This document shows positions 989 through 54,059 of a stretch of DNA of 54,059 nucleotides, piece by piece. Made by a program: the position numbers and the translations under genes. Origin of the DNA: a virus. Its lineage: Duplodnaviria > Caudoviricetes. The stretch spans positions 1 to 54,059 of IMG/VR virus record IMGVR_UViG_3300030107_001798; one strand, 5' to 3'. Below the pieces are notes generated by a model. That model was not told where the DNA came from and ran no database searches. It saw only the letters and a list, made by a program, of their open reading frames with translations. Within the stretch, counting starts at the first letter, position 1, and each line of letters starts with the position of its first letter.

Positions 989-1112
989 AGAATTACAAGA
1001 AAGTGTGCCAGACCTTATTGGCAAGATATATATGGAAGGTGCTGTAACTGTGGTAGAGATACCTCATGGTCGCATTAAAATAATGCCAAAGCATCGTAAG
1101 CCTGGTAGATAA
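975..1112 (+). CDS. Small hypothetical protein (45 aa)
   Basis: Hand-translated MVTIKELQESVPDLIGKIY...; AAGGA SD. Confidence 0.55.
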   Translation: MVTIKELQESVPDLIGKIYMEGAVTVVEIPHGRIKIMPKHRKPGR

Positions 1113-1136
1113 AAAGGAGGATTAATAATGTCTAAA

Positions 1137-1260
1137 GCATAGATAGGACAGGTTGCCACCTCATCATAGGTAGAGTGGTCTATGCAAAATTTACGACACA
1201 GGTCGATACCCGCGTCCAACAGTCGGTGAAATCATACATCCGATGAGGTGTAAGACGGGA
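1137..1260 (+). ncRNA. Putative structured RNA with a pseudoknot or alternative helix
   Basis: GCATAGAT 1137-1144 / GTCTATGC 1178-1185; CACCTCATC 1157-1165 / GATGAGGTG 1242-1250; smaller CGAC/GTCG and TCGG/CCGA stems. Confidence 0.5.
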
Positions 1261-1281
1261 CTTTTAAACTTGGAGTTTATA

Positions 1282-1461
1282 ATGACAAAAGATTATATAA
1301 TGTATGATGAAGAGGTTGTTAGAAACCTATCTAAAATGAAAGATTTAATTAATAGTATGAAGACTGCATTTGATTATGTTAGAGGTGACTCTGATGCTAG
1401 ATATATGATGATAGAGACTATTGATAAAGCTATAGAAATAATAAAACAAAAGGAGAAATAA
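1282..1461 (+). CDS. Hypothetical protein (likely start 1282, MTKDYIMY)
   Basis: In frame with ORF 1243..1461; GGAG SD precedes ATG 1282. Confidence 0.7.
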   Translation: MTKDYIMYDEEVVRNLSKMKDLINSMKTAFDYVRGDSDARYMMIETIDKAIEIIKQKEK

Positions 1462-1501
1462 ATTCATTTATCGAATATCAGATACCTTTGGTGGTGGGTA
1501 C

Positions 1502-1717
1502 ATGAAAACACCATATTATGTAATATATATAATTGCAGATGATTATTGGAGAGCTAACGAAATTTTTAAAGAAGAGACTGGATATGACTTTGATTCATCT
1601 ACTTGCGATTGCTGTGGTTCAGACTTCTGGGTAGATGAGATTGATTCTATTAAAGATGATGAAGTACCAGAAAGAAGATTTGGAAAAGATGTAAAAACAT
1701 TAACTATTATAGGATAA
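1502..1717 (+). CDS. Small acidic protein with a CxCC motif
   Basis: ORF track; TCDCCGSDF. Confidence 0.7.
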   Translation: MKTPYYVIYIIADDYWRANEIFKEETGYDFDSSTCDCCGSDFWVDEIDSIKDDEVPERRFGKDVKTLTIIG

Positions 1718-1728
1718 TGTAACAACAT

Positions 1729-1800
1729 AGCCTTTCAGCATGCTACATAAAGGCTTAAGGTTTTTTGCCTAGCGGGTGTTTTTCCACTGATAAAACTTTA
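1729..1800 (+). ncRNA. Two adjacent hairpins (putative structured RNA unit)
   Basis: AGCCTTT 1729-1735 / AAAGGCT 1749-1755; TAAGGTTTT 1756-1764 / AAAACTTTA 1792-1800 (one G-U). Confidence 0.4.
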
Positions 1801-1810
1801 CAAATATTTA

Positions 1811-2002
1811 ATCAAGCCTAACAAGTAAAACCGAAAGGGCTCACAATAATGCTATTGGAGGAAACCTAAGCAAACAATAAAAGTAATACGATGACTATAG
1901 AAACTTGTGTTAACTAGATTGGGCGTATTAATAGCACAATGCATTGCATTGGTGGAAGAGGAGAACTTGTGAGAACTTAGCTCAAAAGGCTAAAGGCTTG
2001 AT
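1811..2002 (+). ncRNA. Putative ~190-nt multi-junction structured RNA
   Basis: Nested helices ATCAAGCCT/AGGCTTGAT, CTCACAA/TTGTGAG, TGCTATT/AATAGCA, AATACG/CGTATT, plus local hairpins CC-GAAA-GG, CAATGC/GCATTG and TTAGC/GCTAA; no ORF in the track. Confidence 0.65.
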
Positions 2003-2007
2003 AATAT

Positions 2008-2078
2008 GGGCACTGTCATCTTATACCCACAACTACAATCTAAGGTATAAAGAGCTCCGCATCCTCTTGGCAGTGCCC
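2008..2078 (+). ncRNA. Stem-closed small RNA element
   Basis: GGGCACTGTC 2008-2017 / GGCAGTGCCC 2069-2078; inner TCTTATACC/GGTATAAAGA. Confidence 0.55.
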
Positions 2079-2101
2079 TAATATTTAATAAGGAGTAATC
2101 A

Positions 2102-2260
2102 ATGAAAGTATATGAATGTTTTTATTGTTATGAAAAAACTGATGAAAAAGGAATGAGAGTTTCTGGTCAGACAAAAATAACAAAAAAGATAATTAAAAAT
2201 TGCAAACCATGTGTAAATACATTTGGAGGTAAACATGGTATGTTAATAATAAAGGAGTAA
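2102..2260 (+). CDS. Small zinc-finger protein (52 aa)
   Basis: Hand-translated MKVYECFYC...CKPC...; AAGGAG SD. Confidence 0.65.
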   Translation: MKVYECFYCYEKTDEKGMRVSGQTKITKKIIKNCKPCVNTFGGKHGMLIIKE

Positions 2261-2263
2261 TAA

Positions 2264-2584
2264 ATGAGTAAAGTATCGAGTATAATTTATGATGAAAATA
2301 TGTTTGATTATTATTCAATTGAACAAATATTCACTAAACAATTAATTGATATTAAAAAAAAATATCAATTATCAAACAAGTTAATGGAAGAATTTAAAAA
2401 TGATTGGTTAGAATATATGCATCCAAGTTGTGGCTGGGATTGGGAAGAACTTGTAGACCATTATTATAATAATATGGATGTGTATGAAGTCTGTTCATGC
2501 GATTTTCTTAGTCCCGAAGAGATAAGTGAACACACAAAAATCAATCTTCAAAAACTAAATGAGATAAATATAAGGAGTAAATAA
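2264..2584 (+). CDS. Hypothetical protein
   Basis: ORF track; SD. Confidence 0.75.
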   Translation: MSKVSSIIYDENMFDYYSIEQIFTKQLIDIKKKYQLSNKLMEEFKNDWLEYMHPSCGWDWEELVDHYYNNMDVYEVCSCDFLSPEEISEHTKINLQKLNEINIRSK

Positions 2585-2823
2585 TGAGCAAACAAAAACT
2601 ATTTCAAAAGCATAAAGATGATATAGAAATAAAGCTTACACAATGCTTAGAAAGAAAGTACAAAGATGAGCAAGTGGAAGCAAAGGCAGTAAATCATGGA
2701 TGGATACAAGCATTAAAATGGGTAAAAGGATATGATAATTTATGTGATGTTCCAGTAATAACTGGAGATAAGGATACAGATGCTTTGTTAGAAGATGAAA
2801 GAATTGCTCAAGAAGGAGTATAA
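2584..2823 (+). CDS. Hypothetical protein
   Basis: ORF track; TAATG stop/start coupling; SD. Confidence 0.75.
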   Translation: MSKQKLFQKHKDDIEIKLTQCLERKYKDEQVEAKAVNHGWIQALKWVKGYDNLCDVPVITGDKDTDALLEDERIAQEGV

Positions 2824-2825
2824 AA

Positions 2826-3302
2826 ATGAAAAGAGAGACACAAAAAAGTAAAGTAAAGAAACATCTTGAGTCTGGTCAATCAATTACACCAATAGATGCA
2901 TTAGAACGATACGGATGCTTTAGGTTAGCTGCTATAATTTGGACATTGAAACATGAAGATGGTATGAATATAAAAACTGAGAATGTTAAGAATAAATATG
3001 GTACTAAGTATGGAAAATATACATTAGTTAATGACTCATGCAAAAAAGAGAATAATATATTTGATGATGAAGACTTAAATAAATTGGAGTTGTTATTAAA
3101 AATATATGGATATGAAAAGTTTGACGTTAAAGATAGTTTAAGTGGAAACAAAAGACTGAGAATTGGATATTGGAAACCTCTTAAGACTGAAGATATAGCA
3201 AAAATTCACGGCCATTGCAACTTAAGGCTAGAAGAAGTAGATTGGGAAGACGATGATTGTGGGACTTTATATTGTTATGAAATAAATCTACCAAGATTAT
3301 AA
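2826..3302 (+). CDS. Winged helix-turn-helix DNA-binding protein (HTH_39-like N-terminus)
   Basis: TQ...HLESG.SITP.DA...YGCFRLAAII..LK pattern. Confidence 0.7.
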   Translation: MKRETQKSKVKKHLESGQSITPIDALERYGCFRLAAIIWTLKHEDGMNIKTENVKNKYGTKYGKYTLVNDSCKKENNIFDDEDLNKLELLLKIYGYEKFDVKDSLSGNKRLRIGYWKPLKTEDIAKIHGHCNLRLEEVDWEDDDCGTLYCYEINLPRL

Positions 3303-3309
3303 ATAATAA

Positions 3310-3401
3310 TTTGGGGTGTAAAAATATTAATAACTAAAAAGGAATGACTTAAAAGTTAAAGATTTTTAGTGTTGGCTTGGCAGGTATGCCATCACCCCAA
3401 A
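3310..3401 (+). ncRNA. Stem-closed structured intergenic RNA
   Basis: TTTGGGGTG 3310-3318 / CACCCCAAA 3393-3401; inner ACTAAAAA/TTTTTAGT and GGCA-GGTA-TGCC. Confidence 0.5.
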
Positions 3402-3420
3402 AAATTAAAAGGAAAGCATT

Positions 3421-3636
3421 ATGATAGCAATTAAAACAACATTTACAGAAAAAGATTATGAATATTTAAAAAATGAAGTATTTTTATATCTTGAAGAATT
3501 AAGAAAATCTGGTGAAACAAATATGTTCGGAGCTGCTAGTTACATAGAAAACGATTTTGAAGTTGATAAAAATATAGCAAGAAGATTTCTATCTGAATGG
3601 ATGAAAACCTATAACAAAAAAGATAAGGAGCAATAA
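3421..3636 (+). CDS. Small phage protein
   Basis: ORF track; YL..LR.SG.TNMFGA motif recalled from phage hypotheticals. Confidence 0.75.
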   Translation: MIAIKTTFTEKDYEYLKNEVFLYLEELRKSGETNMFGAASYIENDFEVDKNIARRFLSEWMKTYNKKDKEQ

Positions 3637-3812
3637 TGAGATATTACTGGGAAGCTTTGTTTAGCACAGAATATTTTCCATATTGGGAATTTACAATGTT
3701 AATGATGATTCTACTTCAATGTAGTATGATATATAGAATGCATAGAATAGAACATAAAATAAATATAAATAATGAGACAATGAATGATGTGTTAGATGAA
3801 TTAATAGATTAA
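3636..3812 (+). CDS. Small predicted membrane protein (58 aa)
   Basis: Hand-translated MRYYWEALFSTEYFPYWEFTMLMMILLQCSMIY...; TAATG coupling and AAGGAG SD. Confidence 0.65.
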   Translation: MRYYWEALFSTEYFPYWEFTMLMMILLQCSMIYRMHRIEHKININNETMNDVLDELID

Positions 3813-3829
3813 AATAAAAGGAGAGAGAC

Positions 3830-4426
3830 ATGGGATTTGATTTAAGTGGCATTAACCCAACAGTAAATAAAGAATTTCCAACAAGATACAATGAAATACT
3901 AAAACAATATGGAAAAGATGGGTATTTAGATTGGAATAAAGAGATACCAGAAAAAGTAAAAAATGAATATTTCCAACTACAAGACGAATATCAATCAAAC
4001 AACCCCGGTGATTACTTTAGAGCAAATGTATGGTGGTGGAGACCATTATGGGATTATGTATGTCATGTATGTGATGATATTCTAATTGAAGAAGATATGG
4101 AAAAAGGCACATACAATGATGGACATGAGATAGATAATGAAAAAGCTTTAGCAATCGCTGATAGACTAAAAACATTACATAAAAATGGAGACATGCTTAA
4201 ACATCAAATAGAAAGAGAAGCTTATCTAAAGGGATTGGATAAAATAGACTGCACAACTTGTAATGGGACTGGACAAAGAAATGATGAATATGTTAAAGGG
4301 GATTGTAATGGATGTAATGGAGAAGGTAAAAGAGAAAGCTGGGAAACAAGTTATCCATTTGAAACAGATTTTGTAATGGACTTTGCAAAATTCTGTGAGC
4401 AATCTGGAGGTTTTAGTATTTGTTAA
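3830..4426 (+). CDS. Phage protein with a DnaJ-type zinc finger
   Basis: CTTCNGTG and CNGCNGEG (two CxxCxGxG repeats); no J-domain seen. Confidence 0.8.
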   Translation: MGFDLSGINPTVNKEFPTRYNEILKQYGKDGYLDWNKEIPEKVKNEYFQLQDEYQSNNPGDYFRANVWWWRPLWDYVCHVCDDILIEEDMEKGTYNDGHEIDNEKALAIADRLKTLHKNGDMLKHQIEREAYLKGLDKIDCTTCNGTGQRNDEYVKGDCNGCNGEGKRESWETSYPFETDFVMDFAKFCEQSGGFSIC

Positions 4427-4430
4427 GAAA

Positions 4431-4502
4431 TGGCCCAACAAGTTACTTTGTTAGTATTTTCAAATATTGACGTGAAATAAAAAAACAACAAAGGTTGGGC
4501 CA
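4431..4502 (+). ncRNA. Long imperfect hairpin (putative small RNA or processing stem)
   Basis: TGGCCCAAC 4431-4439 / GTTGGGCCA 4494-4502; CTTTGTT/AACAAAG; TATTTTCA/TGAAATA. Confidence 0.5.
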
Positions 4503-4524
4503 GAAATTTGCTAACCTGAGCAAG

Positions 4525-4581
4525 GAATATAAGCTGGTAGTTGTGTAAGTCTACCCAGAGCATCAACGCCAGCTATATTTC
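4525..4581 (+). ncRNA. Hairpin element
   Basis: AATATAAGCTGG / CCAGCTATATT with one bulge; inner GGTAG/CTACC. Confidence 0.4.
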
Positions 4582-4583
4582 GA

Positions 4584-4612
4584 TTGACTCTAAACCTTGA
4601 TATTATTAAATT
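4584..4612 (+). promoter_or_regulatory. Sigma70-type promoter for the recombination/replication operon
   Basis: TTGACT-N17-TAAATT, ending 24 bp before ATG 4637. Confidence 0.65.
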
Positions 4613-4636
4613 TACGAAGCATTTAGGGAGAGATAA

Positions 4637-5419
4637 ATGGATATTAAAACCATATATAGTTCCTACCTTAAGCATCAAGATTCATTAAGAGAGAGAGATA
4701 AAAATGTCTTTCATGCGTCTTCTGCAGGTAGTTGCTATAGAAAACAAATGTATTCTTATTATGATTTTCCATCTGATGAAAAAGATGATAAGTCATTTAG
4801 GTTACTAAGACTTGGGACATTAGTACATTCTGATTTAGAAAAAGCAATGTCTATGTATGAAGATAAACTTGCTGATATGCAATTACCAGAAAGTCCTATT
4901 AAAAGAAGTATTCATATTGAAGAAAAAGTAAAATATGAACCATTAGATGTAGTAGGAACATTTGACGCTGGTGAATTAATAAGAAACAGTCATACAAAAG
5001 AAGTTGAATTTAATCTCTATGATTATAAAACAGCAGCTGCATATAAATGGACTACTAAGTTTGGATTAAAGAAAAATAGAGTGGCTGGTAGTGATACCAA
5101 TTACAAACTTCAATTAGGTACTTATGCATTAACAGTAAGACATACATACGAACCAGATAGAATTAATATGTATCTTGTATGGTACAATAAAAATACATCA
5201 CAAATGAGAGAGCAAATTGTCAGCAATGAATGGATAGATAAGGCACTTGAATATTGGGCAGAAATCTATGAAATTAAAGAAGACATGGGTAAAGGATTTC
5301 AAGAAGAGTTAATTCCAGAAATTACTTATGGAGTCCCTGTCGCAGATTGGGAATGTAGGTACTGTCAATATTATAGCATATGTCCAAGTAAATTAGCTGA
5401 TAAAAAACCAAAATACTAA
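4637..5419 (+). CDS. Cas4/AddB-like PD-(D/E)xK exonuclease with Fe-S cysteines
   Basis: GSCYRK, LGTLVH, GTFD...YDYKT, QLGTY and C-terminal CRYCQYYSIC; adjacent to a recombinase. Confidence 0.85.
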   Translation: MDIKTIYSSYLKHQDSLRERDKNVFHASSAGSCYRKQMYSYYDFPSDEKDDKSFRLLRLGTLVHSDLEKAMSMYEDKLADMQLPESPIKRSIHIEEKVKYEPLDVVGTFDAGELIRNSHTKEVEFNLYDYKTAAAYKWTTKFGLKKNRVAGSDTNYKLQLGTYALTVRHTYEPDRINMYLVWYNKNTSQMREQIVSNEWIDKALEYWAEIYEIKEDMGKGFQEELIPEITYGVPVADWECRYCQYYSICPSKLADKKPKY

Positions 5420-5428
5420 GGAGAAATA

Positions 5429-6067
5429 ATGAGCAATAATAATGAAGTAATAGTAGTTGATGAGCAAATGCTACAGGCTACCGATGCAATAAGAGAAGCA
5501 ATAACAAAGAAACATAAGAAAATATCTAGAATAAAAACACCTAAACCATACATTAAAAAGAAAATGGGATTAGATTATGTAGAAATTGGATATATGAGAA
5601 AACTTGCAGATTCACATTTTCCAGGTTGGTCTTGGACAATACAAGATACTGAAGTATTGGGAAGTGAAGCATACGTTGTACATGGCAGGTTAAGATGGTA
5701 TGATGAAGGATTGTGGAGAGAAGGCGATATGGTTGCAGCTCATAGAATACAAAAGAAGCGTGGAACCAATGAATTTGTAGATATAGGTAATGATGTTAAA
5801 TCAGCTAATACTGATTGTATGAAGAAAGCATTACAAATGTATATGAATATTGCAGATGATGTTTATCGAAATCAAGTTGAAGACCTTACATTAGCTGATG
5901 AACAAAAGAATGATATTCTTGTTGTTGCTAGTGAAATAAGCGAAGAAAGAATGGAACAAATACATGGATTAATAAATGACCAAGCAATAAATACTGCAAA
6001 TTACAATTCATCAAAACTAAAACTAGAGAGAGAACTGGAGAAACAAAATGAAAAGTCTAAACAATAA
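5429..6067 (+). CDS. sak: Rad52/Sak-like single-strand annealing recombinase
   Basis: GLDYV...FPGWS...DIGNDVKSANTDCMKKA pattern; flanked by exonuclease and SSB. Confidence 0.75.
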   Translation: MSNNNEVIVVDEQMLQATDAIREAITKKHKKISRIKTPKPYIKKKMGLDYVEIGYMRKLADSHFPGWSWTIQDTEVLGSEAYVVHGRLRWYDEGLWREGDMVAAHRIQKKRGTNEFVDIGNDVKSANTDCMKKALQMYMNIADDVYRNQVEDLTLADEQKNDILVVASEISEERMEQIHGLINDQAINTANYNSSKLKLERELEKQNEKSKQ

Positions 6068-6338
6068 TTATGGAGAAATTCATTCACTTCTTACGCAAGA
6101 AGAATGTTATACAATTGGCACTAACGATGGAAAAGAATTTAGGAGAGTAGTTTATAAAGGAACTAAACTCTTAAATGGAAAGCCTATGATGGTATTTAAA
6201 ACTGAAGACAATAGTAGGTTGACAGTTAATCCATCATTTCACACTTTCACAATAGAAGAACAACCTCTGCCTCAGCCTGAAGATTTAGAGTCTAAGGTAG
6301 ATGTTTACATTAATAATAAAATAAAAAGGGAGAGATAA
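6048..6338 (+). CDS. Hypothetical protein
   Basis: ORF track; GGAG SD. Confidence 0.7.
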   Translation: MKSLNNNYGEIHSLLTQEECYTIGTNDGKEFRRVVYKGTKLLNGKPMMVFKTEDNSRLTVNPSFHTFTIEEQPLPQPEDLESKVDVYINNKIKRER

Positions 6339-6613
6339 TGGGAAAAGTCTCACAAAAAGATACTCAAGACCTCATAGATAGTGGAGTGTTGAGTAAGAAA
6401 GCTCTATCTGCAATGAAAGAAAAAAACTTAGTTGCTAAAAGCAGAACAACTATCAAAAGGTTTATGAAAACCGCTGATGGTAAATTTGTAGAACCTAAGT
6501 TATATTTTCGTGGGTCAACTGGAACAAAACCATCAAAGAAAATGGAAGAGTTCACAGCTGCTTACAATAAATTGCTAGAGAAATACACAACAACTAAAAC
6601 AAACAATAAATAA
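6338..6613 (+). CDS. Small basic hypothetical protein
   Basis: ORF track; Lys-rich; coupled to upstream stop. Confidence 0.75.
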   Translation: MGKVSQKDTQDLIDSGVLSKKALSAMKEKNLVAKSRTTIKRFMKTADGKFVEPKLYFRGSTGTKPSKKMEEFTAAYNKLLEKYTTTKTNNK

Positions 6614-6622
6614 GGAGTAATA

Positions 6623-7249
6623 ATGGCAAAAGCACTAGACGCTGTTTTTGATTCAACAGCAGTAAATAGTTGGTTACCAACTGAAGAAGGAAAGTATCCA
6701 GCTCACATAACATCTTTATCAACTAAAGAAGTTAATACAAGAGCAGGCGAAGCTATTGTTGTCAATATGACATATAAAGTAGCACCAGAAGTTGCAGATT
6801 ACAATCAAGACTTATGGGAAATGGATGGATACAACTATAAGAAAGACTCAAGTGGCGATAGAATCCCTATTATGAATGGAGATGGACAAGCAACTGCGAG
6901 TTGTGAACACTTAAAAGACAGAACTCTATATGATAATGGATTTTGGGTATTCACTGATACTTCATCTGCTAGTAAGAATCAAAGATACTTTGCTTTACTT
7001 GAAAATCTTGGCATCAAATGTGAAGATGATAAAGGTATTAAGAAATTAATGCTAGTCGAAGAAGAAGATGTAATCGGAAAACCTGTTCTTGTTGATTTAA
7101 AAAGGCAAGAATATGTAACTAAGGAAACTAGAGATTTACCAGTTGACCAACAAGAAAAGAGGTCTACGTTTAAAGTAAGTAATTTAGAGCCTTGGGAAGA
7201 TGGAGATATTCTTAGTCAAGAAGAACTTGACGATGATGTTCCATTTTAA
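6623..7249 (+). CDS. ssb: Phage single-stranded DNA-binding protein
   Basis: Acidic C-terminal tail LDDDVPF; position in the recombination module. Confidence 0.7.
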   Translation: MAKALDAVFDSTAVNSWLPTEEGKYPAHITSLSTKEVNTRAGEAIVVNMTYKVAPEVADYNQDLWEMDGYNYKKDSSGDRIPIMNGDGQATASCEHLKDRTLYDNGFWVFTDTSSASKNQRYFALLENLGIKCEDDKGIKKLMLVEEEDVIGKPVLVDLKRQEYVTKETRDLPVDQQEKRSTFKVSNLEPWEDGDILSQEELDDDVPF

Positions 7250-7261
7250 TTAAAAAAGGGT

Positions 7262-7291
7262 TTCCGTTAGTATAGAATAATAGGGTAAATT
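7262..7291 (+). promoter_or_regulatory. Putative promoter
   Basis: TTCCGT-N18-TAAATT; predicted +1 near 7298, the first base of the closing stem. Confidence 0.35.
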
Positions 7292-7364
7292 AGAGACGAG
7301 GGTAGTCAGATATATACATCTCTCTCTCGTCTCTCCCTTCGTATTCTCCCAAGAGACTACCCTC
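7292..7364 (+). ncRNA. Two-state RNA element with a CU-rich anti-Shine-Dalgarno loop
   Basis: GAGGGTAGTC 7298-7307 / GACTACCCTC 7355-7364 competes with AGAGACGAG 7292-7300 / CTCGTCTCT 7326-7334. Confidence 0.6.
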
Positions 7365-7385
7365 AAAATTTCAAAAGGAAGAGAT

Positions 7386-7637
7386 ATGAATCAAGAATCA
7401 AGTGCAGTAATCAAACTAACTAAGTCTGAAATAGAAATGGTTATTAATGCTTTACAACTTACTGAAGATGCGGCTAACCATTTCGATATAGACAATATGT
7501 TTACACATAAAATAAAACACGATTTTATTCAAATAAGAACAGATATAATACAAGGAGAAAAAGAAATTGAAACCAGAAACAAAACAAAAGAAGAAAATAG
7601 GAATGGCCCGCAAGCTTGCGAAAGCTGCGATGATTGA
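7386..7637 (+). CDS. Hypothetical protein
   Basis: ORF track; SD. Confidence 0.65.
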   Translation: MNQESSAVIKLTKSEIEMVINALQLTEDAANHFDIDNMFTHKIKHDFIQIRTDIIQGEKEIETRNKTKEENRNGPQACESCDD

Positions 7638-9010: not shown

Positions 9011-9130
9011 ATGCCAAAAAAAACAACCAAAAAGAAAAATATCCCAAACAATTTTAGAGGAAAAGAAGACATATTCTTTAAAAAAATAAGGGATGGATTA
9101 AAGAAATTTTTAGAATCACCATTTAAATAA
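9011..9130 (+). CDS. Small basic protein (39 aa)
   Basis: Hand-translated MPKKTTKKKNIPNNF...; AAGGAG SD. Confidence 0.55.
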   Translation: MPKKTTKKKNIPNNFRGKEDIFFKKIRDGLKKFLESPFK

Positions 9131-12083: not shown

Positions 12084-12375
12084 AAGTTGCTTGGGGTGTT
12101 ATTACGAATACCATAGTAAATGCTATTGGTTTAAACTAAAAAATAATAGCACCCCAAAAGAAATACCTAAAGATGTAATAGGAAAAGGATGTAGTAAGTA
12201 TTATAATACATCAATTGGTACATCTAAATCTAAATTGCAACAATTGTTAATAGAAAAATTTGATGGAGAAATTGTCGGAGACAAATACGAACCTCCTTCT
12301 AAACCAATAAAAGAATACAAAAGAAAGTGGGTTAAAAGCCCACATAAGTATTCTCACAGAAAGGATGCACAATGA
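12076..12375 (+). CDS. Cys-containing hypothetical protein
   Basis: ORF track; GGAG SD. Confidence 0.6.
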   Translation: MHKSCLGCYYEYHSKCYWFKLKNNSTPKEIPKDVIGKGCSKYYNTSIGTSKSKLQQLLIEKFDGEIVGDKYEPPSKPIKEYKRKWVKSPHKYSHRKDAQ

Positions 12376-13104: not shown

Positions 13105-15864
13105 TTAAGTTAACTCGCCTTCTTCTAACATTCTCAAACTTCTTTCTATTCCTTGAGGTAGTACTTTTTTACGAACTTTTTTGTATGTTTTTTGTATTTC
13201 TTTTGCTTCTTTAGTGGGGTATAAACCAAGTTCTTGTTGTATTGCCCAACCAATTCTACCTTCATTAATTTGGGGTATATGTCTTTCAATTAATCTTCCA
13301 GCAAAACCATTTAATATCCTTATTGTTTTGCTAAGGTCTGTACTTTGAGTATTTAAATCATATTCTTGCATACCTGTAATAATCGTAAGCAATGAATCTT
13401 CGTCTAAATTTACAACATCCAACATCATTCCTATATCTATTATATCAGATGCTAATGGGCCTCCAAAAGTAGAAAGTATAGGGCCTTTACCATAGAATGC
13501 TTTTTTAATATCCTCATCATCCCCAGTCATAATAGTAGCAAGCTGATTAATTCTATTAGCAGAATCATGCTCTACAAGATTGTTAAAATTTAAACCAGTA
13601 ATTGCAGAAGCTATAACTGGAGCTAAAAAATAAGCAACTGCCATTCTATATGCTTTTTCTAGACCCCTAGCATCCCCATTTGGAATTAAGTTTCCTGCTA
13701 ATACATCTTGTTTAGCTTCTTTTAAAATTTTAACATTTCTTTCAAAAAATTCCATACTATAATGTTGAAATTGGAACATAAATCTACCAATTTTACTTCT
13801 AAAGGCTTTCGATTTTGCATAATCAGCATAATCAAAATGATTAAGAATAACCATATTTTTAGCATAGTTCTGTGCAATTTGTTGTATAGATGTTTCCAAT
13901 TTAGACTCAGAAAAACCTTCACCCCATTCTCTTTTTTTAGTTTCAGCAAACTGAGGATTGTCCTTTAACCATTTATACATCTGAGCAAAACCTATTTTAA
14001 ATGTGTGTTTTCTATTTGAATTTTCTGCTTTTCTATGTAAATAAGATGTTTTAGCTGCTATAGTTGATGTAAAATTTGCAAAATTTTCAAGTCTACTTTT
14101 TTCCCTTATTTCATATTTTCCTTTAGATTCATTCCAAATTCTTAAATTAAACATTGAAGCTGGTTCCATTAATCCAGTTTCTAATAATTGAGGAGAAACT
14201 TCATCAAATAAAAGGCCAGCATCTTTTAATGCACTTTCAACAAATACATTTGAATCAACCTCCACTCCCTTAGAAGTTTTTAATGTCATATTTTTTAATT
14301 GTTGATTCATTGTAGATATTTGAATCGGGCCCCATTCAACATAATCTAATAATCTTTGAGTAAAGTTTCTTGCAGCAGAGCGTGGGTTAACACCAAGCTT
14401 AGATATGAACTCAAAACCCAATAAAGACCTCATTAAAGCCCTAGTTTTGGGACTTATATCAGTATCTCCATTAGATGCTTTATGTAAATCTGTAATGTAA
14501 TCAACTATATTTTGCCCATATCCTTGAGCAGAACCTTTCATTTTGAATATTTTTTCAACACCAGATAAAGACCTAAGGAAGTGAGCATCTGTAAAAGAAG
14601 TAAAGTTAAATCTATTAACATCTGAAATATAGCTATCAACTACATTTAAAAAATGTTTACTATAATTATAATCAGCTTCTTCTGCTATTCCTTTAGCATG
14701 CTCACTAATATCTAATCTAATTTGATTAGCTATTTCAATAACTGTTTTAGGTTTGTCTTTTATATATGGGTTAGCTGCGTTTTGTAAATCATCTAAGTGA
14801 GGCATCATCTTCTGCATAAATGGAGCACTTAAATCTCTTACATAATGTGGAAAATAACCAGCTTTATATTTAGGCATAAGTTGTTCTCTTAGCTTTTCTT
14901 TAACGTCTTTTAATTCTTTTACTGATTTTTCATCACCATTAATCTTCATTCTTTCAATAATAGAATTAATTCTTTGGTCTATTCCACTTTTAAGGGATTT
15001 ATATAGGTCTTGCATCATAACATCATATTGAACAACTGCTTTATATAATTCCGGTCTTTCTTTTAAAGCAACCCCATTTCTATCTTTTACAATATTAGCA
15101 ATTTCTCTATCTGTTAATATAACTCTTGCATTGCCTTTATCAATTTTTTTTAAAAGTTCTTTAGAAGAAGAGTCTCCTTTATTAGCTTTATCTTTTATAA
15201 CATTATATTTAGCTTCTGTAGCTTCTTTTAATCCTCTTTCTACAACATCCATAAAATCACCAAAAGATTTTAATTCACCACTGGTTGTGAGTTTATTTAT
15301 TTCTTTCTGAACCTCAGAAGCTTTAGCATCATCTCCATCATTTATTGCTTTTACTAAGTCATTATCTAGTTTTGTCATTTTCTTTTGAGCAGCCCTGTAT
15401 CCTAATTTTCCGAGCATACTATTTATACCTGCGTCTTTTTGCAATGATGTAATAATTTCTTTAAATCTATTTCTATCTCTTAATTCATTTTTTCTAAAAA
15501 AGAAACTAGAGTTTTGCATATCTTTTAAATATCCACCAATCACAGGGTCTTTAGCTCCATAATGAGATGTTTGATAAAAGTATTGAGCAAATTGACCATC
15601 CAATCTTCCAGACTTTATATTTTGATTTAATGTTTTAAGTGTCTTTTTAAATCCATTAAGCCTTCCCTTAGTAAGTATTTCAGAATTTGTATCGTATTTT
15701 AATGTATCTAATTCAACAAGAAAATCTCTTTCAGCTAATCTAAAAGCAGCTTCATAAGGATTATTCATCTGTTTTCTGCTTAAATTAGATTTAGACCAAT
15801 TGTCTATAGTATCTAATAATTCTTTATAATGTGGATTTACGATATTGCAATTAATTGAAGCCAT
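13105..15864 (-). CDS. Large internal virion (ejection) protein; likely start MASIN at 15864
   Basis: Last gene of the late arm; TAATG coupling; helical, with C-terminal HFDY...QFQHYS and hydrophobic segments. Confidence 0.7.
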   Translation of the reverse strand: MASINCNIVNPHYKELLDTIDNWSKSNLSRKQMNNPYEAAFRLAERDFLVELDTLKYDTNSEILTKGRLNGFKKTLKTLNQNIKSGRLDGQFAQYFYQTSHYGAKDPVIGGYLKDMQNSSFFFRKNELRDRNRFKEIITSLQKDAGINSMLGKLGYRAAQKKMTKLDNDLVKAINDGDDAKASEVQKEINKLTTSGELKSFGDFMDVVERGLKEATEAKYNVIKDKANKGDSSSKELLKKIDKGNARVILTDREIANIVKDRNGVALKERPELYKAVVQYDVMMQDLYKSLKSGIDQRINSIIERMKINGDEKSVKELKDVKEKLREQLMPKYKAGYFPHYVRDLSAPFMQKMMPHLDDLQNAANPYIKDKPKTVIEIANQIRLDISEHAKGIAEEADYNYSKHFLNVVDSYISDVNRFNFTSFTDAHFLRSLSGVEKIFKMKGSAQGYGQNIVDYITDLHKASNGDTDISPKTRALMRSLLGFEFISKLGVNPRSAARNFTQRLLDYVEWGPIQISTMNQQLKNMTLKTSKGVEVDSNVFVESALKDAGLLFDEVSPQLLETGLMEPASMFNLRIWNESKGKYEIREKSRLENFANFTSTIAAKTSYLHRKAENSNRKHTFKIGFAQMYKWLKDNPQFAETKKREWGEGFSESKLETSIQQIAQNYAKNMVILNHFDYADYAKSKAFRSKIGRFMFQFQHYSMEFFERNVKILKEAKQDVLAGNLIPNGDARGLEKAYRMAVAYFLAPVIASAITGLNFNNLVEHDSANRINQLATIMTGDDEDIKKAFYGKGPILSTFGGPLASDIIDIGMMLDVVNLDEDSLLTIITGMQEYDLNTQSTDLSKTIRILNGFAGRLIERHIPQINEGRIGWAIQQELGLYPTKEAKEIQKTYKKVRKKVLPQGIERSLRMLEEGELT

Positions 15865-18800
15865 TACACTGCACACTTTTCTAGTTCAATTAATTCATCT
15901 TTCATTCTACGAAGTCTTTCCTCACTACTTTCGTCTATCGGAAGATTGTTTTTAACATTCTCAACAGATTTGCTTCTTTTATACATTTCTTTTAAACTAT
16001 CCATTCCTTGTTTTCCAGATTTTTCTAAATTAAGATTCTTAAAATAACTACTGCCGCCCATTAACGCATACACTGGATTATTCATTAATTTAGTAGTTAA
16101 TTCTGGTTTTAAATTACCTTGTTTTAACCCTAATCCAATTGTTTTTTGAGCAATATCTCTAATATCAGCATCCATAGAATTTCTAGCGTGGAGATAAGAA
16201 ACTGGATTAAGAATATTATTACTCATCATTAATTCTTGTAAATTACTCATTTGGTCTATATATGTATCAAATTCTTTAGACTTACCAGATGCCTCCATTA
16301 TGTCTTTATAAAAACTAAACAAATGGTCATTAAACAACCCAAAACCGTTTTTAATCCTATCTCCAGTTTTAGTCCATTGAATAGTTCCAAAATCTCCAAA
16401 TCGTTTTTCAAAATCTTTATGGAAAGTAGGAAGTTTAATTGCATCATATATTAATTTTTCTTGGCCTGTTGCTCCAAAAGTGAAAGCATCGCCCAAGTTA
16501 TCAGATACTAATTTTTGCATATCAAATTTTCTATCAAAAAATCTTTGAAATTGAGCTTCAGTAACTTGTATATAGGCTAATGCTGTTTGCGCAAGTGATT
16601 GTACTTCTGGGTCTATAACATCCTCACCAAACAATCTCATTTCTTTTCTAGATGCAAGTTGGGTTAAGAAATTCAAACCTCTTCTATATCTAGATGATGG
16701 GTCATATCCTTCTTTTGCTTCAAATGGAACTGCTATTGGGTTACCATTAAAGACTCCAATTTTGTGTTTATTTACAGATGGCTGCATAAATGCCCACAAA
16801 AATTTTAATCCATGTTTATTAACACCTCTTAACAATAATGCACTTTCTATGTCTTGATATGTATTCATATCTGGAAATCTTTCAAGAAATCTTTGCTGTT
16901 CTGGGCTAAGAGATTGCCTTCCTCCATATTTCATTATTTCACCAAGATTGTTCTGGCTTCCATAAAATAATTTTCTATATTGTTTTATGTCATTTATTTC
17001 TTGCCAAGCTTTTTGCCCTAAACCAAAACTATCATCCCCATTAATAAGTGGCATGAATTTTTTTATTTGTTCCATTGTTGAATAATAAACAGTTCCTTTT
17101 TTCATATTACTTGTATTTACATCAACAAATTCAATTTTTTGCAAATCTTTAGAAGACCATGTTTCAAGGTATTTTTCACCTAACCATTCTTTACCAAGTT
17201 CTTTATGCAATTCTTCTTTTAAATTATTAATTTTATCTATTGCAAGTTGTTTCTTTTGCCAAGTCATTCTCTTATTATATTTTATTTGCATTACTTTTTT
17301 ATTAAGAGATTTTATTAAATCAATTTTTTTATTTATATCCCAAGTAGTTTTCAAAACATTTGATTTTAATATTCTACTAGATGTATCTAATTCTTTATTT
17401 TCCATTCTATTGTCAAAAACAAACTCGTCATACCAATCATTTAAATATTCCCTTGCTTTACCAGTGAGAGTTTCTACTCTTGTTTCTTCAAATAAATTAG
17501 CATCCCATAATTTCCACAATGTTCTTTCAATTGGGGAACCTCTTTTACCTTCTGCAAATCCCCTAGATTGTCTCTCTACTGCATTTGGAAACATTTTATC
17601 ATTGTTTGTTACTTTCCATTTAATTTTACCATCATCACTTACTCTATCTTCCACTCCAAATAAAGAAATAAATTCATTACTATCTTTCCATTTGTCTTTA
17701 TTTGTTATATTTCCATCCTTGTCTTCTGCATAATTTTGATATTTATTTCTTAATCTATAGTATAAAGATTTTCTTAAATTTTGATTAAATTGAAAAAATC
17801 TATTAGATGCTTCCATTACATCTTCATAAGATGTTTTTTTCTGCTCTCCACTTTTTTCGTAAACAGAATCTCCAGTTACTTGTAATAATTTACCATATTC
17901 AGATAACATCTCTTTTACAATTGACATATCTAAAGGGCTTAAATCATCAATTTCTTTAAATGTACCATCATCTGTTTTAGTTAATTTTCTAAAAATTCTT
18001 ACCCTTTGTCCGTTATCAGCTTCTCCTTTTTTAGCAACTTGATTGGTGAAACCTATTTTATCAGAAACATTCATTTCTCTTAAATCTTTAGAACTTTTAG
18101 AATTATCCCAATTAGGAAATAAAAAATCATCTCTCCAAGAATATATATCATTAGATATTTCTTTATTTAAATCACCTTTACCATCTATAATATATTGAGT
18201 TTCGAGAGCAGACCTTTGATAAAAATCTGTATTATCATAATCCATTACAATTTTATAACCAGGCCCTTCATATAATATTTTAGAATTTTCTTCACCTTCC
18301 ATTGATATATCGACTGCCTTTCCAGTTTTAGAATCAACAGCTACTGATTGTCCTAAGTTTCCTAAGTAATTTAACATTCTGGGAACTTTTTGAACTAATC
18401 CTATAGATGATTTATATAGCTCTAATGCGGCTGACATTTCTTCAACTTTATCATTTTCCATTGTTGTATTTTGATTCCAATTAAATCCAGACGTTTTCAT
18501 TAAAGCTGTTGGGTCTACTCCCTGAACCCAGAATTGAGAAGTTCTTTGAATATGGTCATACATATTTTTTCTTTCAGCGAAAAAGTAATCTGCTTTATCC
18601 GCATCATAATCACCTTCAAAAACATTAACAACGTCTAGACTATTTACCATCATGGAATTTCCATATGTTTCATCTAAAAATCCTTTTAATCCCATCAATG
18701 TTAAATCGTTTGGCCTTGTTCTTGGATTTCTTCTAACAATAATACCAACTTGAAGATTAGGTCTATTGTTTTCAACACCCAATGTTTGTACTAATTCATG

Positions 18801-21800
18801 TAAATTACCTAAACTAATATCTATATCAAGATTAACACCAAAATCTTCTTTTAATTCTTTAAATATTTCTTCTGGTGTATATACTTTTGAATCTTCGACA
18901 ATTCTTAATTCATACCCCTTGCTAATTAAAGCAGCTACTTTCATATCAGCTTCAAAAGCAGGAAGCATTACTTCTCCCCTACTTTTCATAACTCCATCAT
19001 TGTCTACTAATGTTGCTCTTAATCTGGCATCTGGATGAGAAAGTGCAATAGGAGCCTGTATTAAAGAAGATTGACCTCCGTATCTTTCTGAATCTTCATG
19101 ATTAAATTGATTACTAACAGACCTTTTATTATTAATAAGTGGGTCTATATACGCACCATATATTTTATTTTTAACTATATTTTCACTATAGCTCATTGGA
19201 TTTGCATCTCTAGTAAGCCCAGCAAAAAAATTCATTCCATTTAAATGATTTAGTGATTCGGTTCCATCTACCATAGAAACAAGAGCGTCATCTCCAAATT
19301 GATTTCTTATCCATTTTCTCGTTGAGATAGGGTCTTTAATTTGTTGTTGAGCGTTTCTAAGGGACTCCGATAAAGGCCTTTCTATTTCATCTGCAAAATA
19401 CTTAGCAGATTCATCGTTATTTGCATAATTCATATCTGCGTGAGACCTTTTACCAGTCGGAAGAATAACATCTTTTTCAGGCTTAACTCCAATAGATTGA
19501 AGGCTTATTCTTCTTAATTGTTTTGTATTTGTTTTGTATTTGTTTAAGTCTTTCCATTCAGCGTCATCTATCATAGAACCTTCAATTAGGTTCATTGCTT
19601 TAGCTCCACTTGCAGATAATATAACATCTACATTTTTATTTTCTCTTTTTCCAAAAAAACCATCTAAATCTTTTGAGTAAACAAATAAAGTTTTACCCAT
19701 TAGCAATGGAGAATCTATTCCACCAGAAGCAATAACTGGTTTAATTGGATTAGTAGAATCTGGGCTATGCCCCATCATAGTGTGAAGATATTTCATCATA
19801 TCTTTACTTATATATGCTATACTATCAAAAGAAGATACATCTTTATGAGCATCTCCTATAATATTATCAAGGTCAATATCTATATTATTATCTTTTATAT
19901 ATTTATTAACTTCTTCTCTTACATCTGCATTTTTATCGTTCCAAACTACAACTCCAAATTCACCTCTTCTTAATCTATTTCTTAATACTTCTGCAGTTTC
20001 TTTATCTCCAATAGCTCTATAAGAATCAGCGACGTCTAATATAAATTCTTTATCATATGTAACGAATTTTTTTGTATCGTATAACTTTGTTCTTCCAAAT
20101 AATTTTTCAGTATTTAATTTGCCATTCATAAAATCAGCAAACAAAGCATCTCCATCGCTACCAACTAACATATCAGACAACATTAATCTTCTTAAAGCAG
20201 CTATATAATCCACCTCTGAGGCAAGTCTTTTATTGTCATCAGCTTCTTTTAAAGATTTTTGTATATCTTCAATTATATTTTTTTGTCTTTGGTTTAAAGG
20301 GCTTTCTTCTGATGTGTATAAATCTGCAAATTCATCAAACTTTGCTTTTATTTTTGGAAGGTCTGCATTTTTAATCGCTATAGGGCTAAGATTAGGAGCT
20401 AACCTCATAACAGCCATTCCTCTTTCACCGTTCTCACCAGTTAAATATTCACCATCTATTTGTTGAGCAAATCCCATTTCAGCATTAAACTCGTCTCTCA
20501 GTTTGTCTATTATTTTTATTTGCTTTTCTGGTAAATTATTATTTTTACCAAAAATATTTATTCTTCTTCTTTGTACTCTCCTACCATCATCATTATAAAT
20601 GTATTGTGTTATATATGGGTCTATATTCATGTATTTAATGTCAAGACCATCAAACAAAATATCCATTCTAGTGGTTTGTTTTACTTCTTTACCCTTTGTT
20701 AATCTTCCATTTTTCCATTCTACAGTTTCAACTTTTGCTTGATTTAATCTTCCACCTACTAATCCAATAAAATCAGCAATCATAGAAGGTTTCATTATAT
20801 TTTTTCTTGACTTAGGTAAATCTGAAAACTTTACCCAATCTGTTTTAGCTAAATTTTTAACATACAATCTATCAAATATTCCATCTAAGGATTCTACTTT
20901 TGTAACTTTCCTACCTTCCCAATCATCAAATATTAATTGATTAAACACTTCTTCTTGTTTTTTAGGTTCTGTTTGTTTTTTACCATCTATTCTATATCTA
21001 TCAAAAAATTCTTGAAGAGTAATTGTTTTTACATAATCACCCTCACCAGAATCAAGCATTTCTCTGTCTCTTGAATTCTTTTCTAATGTTTCATATATTC
21101 TTTCAGCATATTCTGGAGTGACCCCATATTGATTAATTTTTTTTGTCATTTTTAAAGCAACAATATCATTAAATTGCTCTAAGTTTATTTCAAATTTAGT
21201 TTCATTTTCTTTAAGACTTATTACTTCAAACTCATTTAACCATTTAAGCATTCTTGTTTCAGATTCAGGCCCACCTTCTTCTAATAATCTTCCTATTTGG
21301 TCTTGAAGCTTAGCAGAGCCAGGAATATTAGATTCTCCTAGAATATTTACAAACTCCATTAATGTTGCTTTAGCAGAGTTGCCAAAATTAGGGTCAGAAC
21401 CAAAAGGAAGTCCTTTATTTGGTTTTAAAGAGTCACTCATTATTTTTAACATTTCCATATCTGTAACCATAACTTTATCAGCAGATAAAGAAACTAATCC
21501 TTTGGAATTTTTTTGGATTTCCCTAACTCTTGAATTGTATTCTACAATATCAGATTCAGAAACACCACTTACCAATTCAGAGCCTTCATTTAATATTTTT
21601 TCATCTATTAATTTTAAAGTAAAACCAGATGTTTTTTTACCAGTCACGTCAACACCAACTGAAGCCATACCTAATCCAGATAAAGCCATTATCCCATCGA
21701 CATCACCTATAGTAAGGTCTGTTCCCTCAATCTTATCCCTAATAGCAAAATCAACAATGTGTTTATGCATCCACATGGGCATTTTAGATTCATTATAACC

Positions 21801-53994: not shown

Positions 53995-54051
53995 ACTCTA
54001 TGCATTGGGATATTATCTTCCATATTTGCATTAACTTGGGCATTAACTGTG
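53995..54051. repeat. Terminal direct repeat, copy 2
   Basis: Identical to 1-57, followed by 8 non-matching bases. Confidence 0.9.
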
Positions 54052-54059
54052 TATTAAAT

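Follow-up and report, generated by a model that had tools for sequence, protein, structure and literature searches.

The early arm of an uncultivated marine phage, which is read from the + strand, carries in its non-coding gaps a set of RNA elements that, as judged by comparison with related sequences, is mixed: free-standing RNA modules lie beside cis-acting boundary elements. The window analysed here is the whole IMG/VR virus record IMGVR_UViG_3300030107_001798 (54,059 bp, G+C about 30%). An original prediction had picked out eight stretches closed by a terminal stem, here called units 1 to 8 (Table 1), and had read them as one class of stable small RNAs with different loops, cut from a polycistronic early transcript at AU-rich linkers. 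We examined the five non-coding gaps that hold them (1113-1281, 1718-2101, 3303-3420, 4427-4636 and 7250-7385). On the comparative evidence, units 3, 4 and 5 (1811-2002, 2008-2078 and 3310-3401) are free-standing, single-copy, clade-specific non-coding RNA families absent from Rfam 15, and unit 6 (4431-4502) is probably a free-standing module too. Several gaps thus do hold + strand RNA structures with different loops, terminal helices and AU-rich linkers, as predicted. The single class does not stand, since 7298-7364 (unit 8) and 4525-4581 (unit 7) look cis-acting and units 1 and 2 are unproven. That the modules are released as small RNAs we regard as an evenly balanced proposition.

Covariation in related genomes had been put forward as a check, and it gave a divided answer. 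The compensatory changes expected of a structured non-coding RNA were found in units 3, 4 and 5 and in the helix that pairs 7298 with 7364 (helix B of unit 8), but not in units 1 and 2. The relatives were 66 viral loci retrieved with the exonuclease protein (33-94% identity), and pieces of every non-coding gap of the window reappear among them. A pattern search detected unit 4 in the window and in 32 loci, giving 24 distinct sequences of 67-86 nt, and all 24 fold separately into an identical three-way junction. A covariance model built from six unit-4 sequences (R1) gave 34 matches in 67 sources, all on the + strand and one per locus. In the alignment, which was fitted to the R1 model and so favours the structure, pairing is kept in 95.4% of cells, and 15 of the 24 pairs show changes in both partners. 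None of 500 shuffles reached the observed values, and slid controls gave at most three such pairs. In the most divergent members all three helices are replaced, and only the loops CACAACUACA and CUCCGCAU are kept. Lengths shift by non-multiples of three, while the stems vary and the loops remain constant, indicating that unit 4 is not coding.

When viral contigs were scanned with the two loop motifs, 97 stretches were obtained, and R1 matched 35 in the 78 new loci searched. The same loop pattern occurred in at least 120 stretches of bacterial genomes, compared with an estimated 500 or so expected by chance. Among the 80 bacterial loci listed R1 gave no match at E ≤0.01 (the best was 0.044), and as it supports none of those listed, the bacterial matches are attributed to chance. 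A hammerhead-like core in unit 4 was considered and rejected, because the junction bases are not conserved.

Unit 5 is a second three-way junction. Eleven aligned homologues were folded with RNAalifold into this form, with compensation in 10 of 23 pairs. A second covariance model (R2) recovered 16 copies, 15 of them distinct, all on the gene strand and one per locus; in its alignment the bases pair in 94.2% of cells, and both partners have changed in 13 of the 23 pairs. Of 500 shuffles, none matched the alignment on four of the measures applied, and 110 did so on the fifth. A wider scan yielded 56 stretches with the unit-5 pattern; 14 of the 55 sources searched passed R2, nearly all of them from the same clade. 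The prediction that G-U pairs favour the + strand fails for single-sequence folding energies, which are better on the + strand in four units and on the - strand in three. It is borne out by the alignments of units 4 and 5, both of which contain near-invariant U-G pairs, and by the model hits, all of which lie on the gene strand. The units also differ from one another as claimed: no repeat family joins them, and R1 and R2 match once per locus.

Homologues of unit 3 were found in three loci, L072 (96% identity), L011 (89%, with a 17-nt insertion) and L008:3051-3289 (72%). RNAalifold placed compensatory changes in 13 of 37 pairs of the four sequences, and in L008 three pairs of the closing helix differ with pairing retained (by eye). 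Covariation drawn from four sequences is suggestive evidence and falls short of strong. Three distinct homologues of unit 6 were found (75-79% identity), in which the sole change in the closing helix is a C-to-U substitution that leaves a G-U pair; the - strand of this unit folds with a z score of -5.02. In L020, L021, L025 and L059 a copy of unit 4 follows immediately 3′ of the unit-6 homologue, joined to it by the linker GAAGUUUAC or GAACUUUAC.

The modules change places among relatives. The 25 distinct copies of unit 4 fall into 17 upstream and 18 downstream context clusters, and the 15 of unit 5 into 10 and 9 respectively, numbers that are inflated by divergence because the clustering threshold was strict. 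Several pairs of copies share their context on one side only. In the window the gene MKVYECFYC... comes after unit 4, and in five relatives it comes after unit 5. Closed units also occur in tandem. In L026:3973-4589 there are six consecutive closed units of 63-217 nt, separated by linkers of 3-9 nt, with no open reading frame (ORF) of 25 or more amino acids starting at ATG on the + strand, and in L011:1941-2920 a similar ORF-free run of about 1 kb follows a canonical terminator with a GC-rich stem and U-tract. Such ORF-free tandem arrays fit a precursor cut into small RNAs better than they fit gene-specific control. The L011 array has an internal direct repeat, visible as a repeated peptide in a - strand frame. 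Sorting of 350 folded gap domains gave 133 groups, a number too noisy to be used as a count because the sorting splits true families and includes small ORFs.

For the autonomous modules, the processing model of the original prediction appears to be the best available account of the paired ends, the AU-rich linkers and the arrays. According to this model, host RNA polymerase would transcribe the modules along with the early genes or as ORF-free arrays. A putative host endonuclease of the RNase E/G type (RN|WUU) would cut the single-stranded AU-rich linkers of 3-9 nt, and the closing helix (9-12 bp) would shield both new ends from exonucleases, so that stable small RNAs accumulate. The invariant loops CACAACUACA and CUCCGCAU of unit 4 might then act in trans by binding a partner, probably from the host. 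Release by linker cutting is a plausible hypothesis.

The six 3′ flank motifs quoted in the prediction are all present, and the flanks of 253 folded units contain 75-85% A+T compared with 68% in the background, with no sharp consensus. Those of unit 4 read AAnUUUAY on the 5′ side and UAUYWUUU on the 3′ side. RNWUU occurs in six of the eight named 3′ flanks and in 16-18.5% of 10-nt background windows, but the first of these counts is biased, since the units had been chosen partly for that motif. In model-defined copies, the motif was present in 10 of 18 distinct 5′ flanks and 9 of 21 distinct 3′ flanks of unit 4, and in 6 of 12 distinct 3′ flanks of unit 5, and beside these two units it is about 2.5-fold above background.

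Several observations weigh against release of the modules by linker cutting. The enrichment of RNWUU is modest and was counted on related, non-independent sequences, and the motif is lacking on the 5′ side of unit 5 (0 of 13 distinct model-defined flanks). Runs of at least four U directly follow the GC-rich closing helix in 8 of 21 distinct 3′ flanks of unit 4, so that some copies could be terminated primary transcripts and not cleavage products. The position of the L011 array after a terminator suggests that arrays may have promoters of their own. Complements of the unit-4 loops in the phage itself, proposed as a way to find targets, are no commoner than in shuffled sequence (the count is reached in 11 of 100 and in 14 of 100 shuffles). 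Units 1, 2 and 7 are without comparative support. Finally, folding scores do not separate stem-closed stretches in gaps (mean z -2.72; 5 of 10 at or below -3) from those picked by the same selection inside genes (mean z -2.0; 6 of 31 at or below -3; Mann-Whitney p = 0.088).

One complement of the P2 loop of unit 4, matching at 10 of 11 positions, lies in the 5′ arm of unit 7 (4535-4545). This pairing was dropped as a candidate because it is not above chance and, among the relatives, the loci that bear unit 7 are without unit 4.

A different reading, which we consider possible but doubtful, confines every unit to a cis-acting role inside long early mRNAs, as intercistronic stabilisers or insulators, as sites for RNase III or other processing, as Rho shields where the RNA is untranslated or as translational couplers, with no functional small RNA released. 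Every unit does have a stop codon upstream and the next ribosome-binding site, or another unit, downstream. No unit in the window has a canonical terminator, and the claim that a U-tract is lacking was correct, no terminator-like site being found on the + strand of the window's gaps. The two elements at 7293-7364 and 4525-4581 already look cis-acting. On the other hand, unit 4 conserves two hairpin loops while its helices vary, and a simple stability or cleavage element needs none. Six different units in a row without an ORF are hard to explain as the control of one gene, and units 4 and 5 keep their form ahead of many different genes. Processing by RNase III had been named by the original prediction as the simpler alternative. 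A site of this enzyme consists of one irregular hairpin containing roughly two turns of double-stranded RNA. The hairpin at 4525-4581, with about 23 bp, is what would be expected of a site of the T7 type, but the branched units 3, 4 and 5 are not, and closing helices of 9-12 bp are short for the enzyme. Because conservation in the branched units is centred on the loops, mere double-stranded cleavage sites are an unlikely account of them.

Unit 7 looks, from its sequence and position, like a 3′-end hairpin that abuts an internal promoter, and so belongs with the cis-acting class and outside the free-standing set to which the processing model applies. The only copies of it found are near-identical (L015/L017), too similar for covariation to be assessed. 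Distant relatives carry another long hairpin at this position, which contains G-U pairs and shows compensatory changes (by eye). The 3′ part of the promoter gap is conserved in about 50 of the 66 loci, and the same boxes occur in distant loci, consistent with 4584-4612 being a promoter. A loose promoter regular expression was uninformative in this AT-rich genome.

The element at 7293-7364 is found in 47 places (36 distinct sequences), always ahead of the same downstream gene family. Among the 36 sequences helix B is paired in 99.7% of cells; both partners differ in 4 of its 10 pairs (25 cells), and many of its G-U pairs are compatible with the + strand only. An overlapping helix A is paired in 97.2% of cells, with changes on both sides in 3 of 8 pairs; rows L041, L042 and L048 are out of register here and were counted as unpaired. 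As the two helices use the same GAG, they must be alternatives or cross one another. The candidate -10 box upstream is the same hexamer as the -10 of the 4584-4612 promoter. TTG-type hexamers lie 18 nt upstream of it in two distant sequence types (by eye), and in the window's own type the -35 is weak. The fixed gene neighbours, the invariant TAAWTT box and the competing covarying helix together make 7298-7364 look like a cis-acting leader. A fixed position combined with alternative pairings, as expected of such a leader, was found for this element only and not for units 4 and 5.

If TAAATT does serve as a -10 box, a transcript starting at about 7298 would form only helix B, as a 5′-terminal stem, and read-through transcripts could form helix A. 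The origin of the transcript, by read-through or by internal start, would then select between two folds. The CU-rich tract of this element is complementary to the purine-rich ribosome-binding sites of the phage (by eye), and so, speculatively, could affect translation. An outer helix C was rejected for the window, where it amounts only to AAGGG/CCCUU and is matched by 139-195 of 200 shuffles; in one distant type it has 8-9 bp in 12 of 15 rows, and at most 3 of 200 shuffles match it.

Table 1. Units and neighbouring features of the early arm. Closing pairs given in bp are contiguous; z scores are for folding of the + strand.
Feature	Position	Strand	Closing pairs	z	Description
Unit 1	1137-1185	+	8 bp (1 G-U)	-0.67	Closed stem; 45/200 shuffles equal it
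7-bp hairpin	1729-1755	+			After the stop of ORF 1502-1717; six U 5 nt downstream; from minimum free energy decomposition
Unit 2	1756-1800	+	9 pairs	-0.77	AU-rich closed stem with only 1 G-C; 41/200 shuffles equal it
Unit 3	1811-2002	+	9 bp	-3.05	192-nt branched RNA
Unit 4	2008-2078	+	11 bp (1 G-U)	-3.92	71-nt three-way junction closed by P1; P2 loop CACAACUACAAU, P3 loop CUCCGCAUC
Unit 5	3310-3401	+	9 bp	-3.53	92-nt three-way junction; conserved junction UAAAAAUAUUAA, variable long P2, small P3 hairpin
Unit 6	4431-4502	+	9 bp	-3.78	72 nt; conserved
Unit 7	4525-4581	+		-4.20	Hairpin of about 23 bp with interruptions; 2 nt separate it from the -35 box
Candidate sigma-70-like promoter	4584-4612	+			TTGACT-17-TAAATT, from consensus scan; precedes the Cas4-like exonuclease gene
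Cas4-like exonuclease gene	4637-5419	+			Preceded by the candidate promoter
TAAATT box, candidate -10	7286-7291	+			6 nt before helix B; TAA-TT invariant in 36/36 distinct sequences
Helix A of the 7293-7364 element	7293-7300 with 7326-7333	+			Has GAG 7298-7300 in common with helix B
Unit 8, helix B	7298-7307 with 7355-7364	+	10 bp	-1.89	Contains a small hairpin and a CU-rich tract (7320-7339) that is invariant

Within the window itself all eight claimed terminal stems are present. The gaps contain 8 closed stems of at least 8 bp in 1,017 nt, compared with 3.44 +/- 1.98 in shuffled sequence (about 2.3-fold), and 10 of 300 shuffles reach 8. The corresponding rates are 7.9 per kb in gaps and 3.0 per kb in coding DNA. 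Folding against shuffled sequence, another proposed check, favoured five units (z -3.05 to -4.20) and was weaker for units 1, 2 and 8, and the scores are inflated because end-paired stretches had been selected. The stems and AU-rich flanks alone are therefore weak evidence.

Chance pairing in AT-rich spacers has to be weighed for units 1 and 2, and possibly for unit 6, and we think it improbable. The poor folding scores of units 1 and 2 and their few or no homologues speak for it, as do the closed stems and the well-scoring stretches found inside genes. Unit 1 has one distinct homologue (L059/L021), and more stringent blastn gave none; this lone homologue keeps the stem through an A-to-G change that gives a G-U pair, which speaks against chance. 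A partial homologue of unit 2 was seen in L019, with the outer pairs not all retained (by eye). Without a significant fold or adequate homologues, both units are unproven. For units 3, 4, 5 and 8 chance is excluded by covariation. The 5′ arm of unit 1 is overlapped by a strong ribosome-binding site, an ATG, three codons and a stop (1129-1143), a mini-ORF that was rejected as it is not conserved in the homologous stretch of L059/L021. Further downstream, a GC-richer block at 1204-1285, before ORF 1282-1461, is 82-92% conserved in L010, L052 and L053 and is a further candidate structured leader outside the eight units.

Action of the units at the DNA level, as miniature inverted-repeat elements, recombination boundaries of the T4 promoter early stem-loop (PeSL) type or replication or packaging signals, would account for terminal inverted repeats with AT-rich flanks, for the shuffling of units among relatives and for the TAATAT seen by eye on both sides of 2008-2078, but is very improbable, since internal helices covary and loops are fixed, which is not required of DNA repeats, the G-U pairs would be C-A mismatches on the opposite strand, and each unit is single-copy, with no repeat family and no consistent target-site duplication.

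The free-standing modules, taken with the arrays, lead us to a broader and tentative idea, that this clade encodes 'RNA operons'. These would be ORF-free tandem arrays of up to about 1 kb, composed of many unrelated self-folding small RNAs. With their paired ends and short AU-rich linkers they would resemble tRNA arrays without tRNA, and processing would turn them into trans-acting RNAs with invariant loops that bind host factors for takeover or counter-defence, the modules being exchanged between phages like genes. The reference library lacks at least three of the RNA families described here, for which the comparative support is strong and which are known so far only from one uncultivated marine lineage. 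Phage-encoded RNAs are far less explored than phage proteins. The modules and arrays are exchangeable and sit in the part of the genome that is expressed first during infection. Should they be released as stable RNAs, they would offer a compact system in which to study how non-coding RNA genes are assembled and exchanged by phages. The two invariant loops of the 2008-2078 family provide a direct handle for finding the partner.

The genes on the + strand, from 76 to about 12,870, comprise small early ORFs and genes for replication and recombination. Besides the exonuclease these include a weak Rad52-like match, a methyltransferase and a DnaB helicase. The remainder of the window is a structural block on the - strand that includes an SU10-type capsid, a portal and the terminase. 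A Pfam and PHROGs search of 30 ORFs recognised neither a phage RNA polymerase nor an enzyme of RNA processing. A 63-bp repeat at the ends of the record (1-63 and 53995-54057, 97% identity) indicates that the contig is probably circular or terminally redundant. Blastn of 1000-7600 against 50,697 phage records gave no DNA match, and TerL is less than 25% identical to that of the isolates compared; no host could be inferred. Some further features were noted in passing. A small ORF at 750-866, with its own ribosome-binding site, encodes 38 strongly hydrophobic amino acids, and a similar ORF precedes the array in L026. A 56-nt end-paired stretch at 9040-9095, outside the range studied, has three similar copies in other loci. 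Another end-paired stretch, at 12086-12241, forms a 13-bp long-range hairpin after the DnaB gene, and a terminator-like site lies on the - strand at 12327-12343. On the - strand, an ORF of 2,888 amino acids (15864-24530) and its neighbours of 923 and 1,069 amino acids have no Pfam match.

Known RNA families were sought in the window and in related loci. With ARAGORN, neither the window nor any of 47 related loci yielded a tRNA. The Rfam search that had been proposed came back empty, Rfam 15 at the gathering threshold giving no match in the window or in 13 loci (142,547 bases), and a permissive search of 1000-7600 gave eight matches (E 0.34-9.3), all far below gathering and regarded as noise. 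A survey from 2023 predicted more than ten thousand structured RNAs in viral contigs (PMC10690425). Like the motifs it describes, the present units are conserved, intergenic, carried by uncultivated viral contigs, found by comparison and absent from Rfam. The words 'tandem' and 'array' do not occur in the main text of that survey. The unit families may already be in its catalogue as unnamed candidates.

Among individual systems, the packaging RNA of phi29 is encoded in the early region and has a three-way junction, a closing helix that joins end to end and two functional loops. The window units differ from it in having no Rfam match, and the P2 and P3 loops of unit 4 are not mutually complementary (by eye). 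T4 RNAC and RNAD are processed from a common precursor. Like these RNAs, and like phage tRNA arrays, the present modules are small, end-paired phage RNAs encoded in tandem. RNAC and RNAD are reported to come from the tRNA region, with roles given as unknown (PMC3014915); unlike them, the window units are not cloverleaves and do not lie beside tRNA genes. RNase E is described as cutting single-stranded RN|WUU sites and leaving stable structured RNA (PMC5222698). The linkers here show a modest enrichment for that word, counted on related sequences. Small RNAs that RNase E matures from 3′ UTRs or non-coding precursors finish with a terminator hairpin carrying a U tail, and they bind Hfq; the window units are without a U-tract.

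In the T7 early region, cleavage by RNase III leaves protective hairpins. The units resemble these sites as stems between the cistrons of an early operon, which in T7 is transcribed by the host. Unlike them, units 3, 4 and 5 branch, have loops of conserved sequence and are closed by helices of 9-12 bp, and only 4525-4581 is a single long hairpin. The PeSL cassettes of T4-type phages are described as a stem-loop with an early promoter at module boundaries in the variable early region (PMC2839356, PMC4122927), a layout to which the hairpin at 4525-4581 with the candidate promoter at 4584-4612 is similar. PeSLs are, however, similar cassettes repeated within a genome, and the window units are unrelated and single-copy; the several similar copies per genome expected of PeSLs, of repetitive extragenic palindromic (REP) sequences or of miniature inverted-repeat transposable elements (MITEs) were not found. 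T4 RNAC and RNAD, the RNase E-matured RNAs, the T7 sites and the PeSL cassettes are thus the closest analogues of the early-arm units, and none of them fits as a family.

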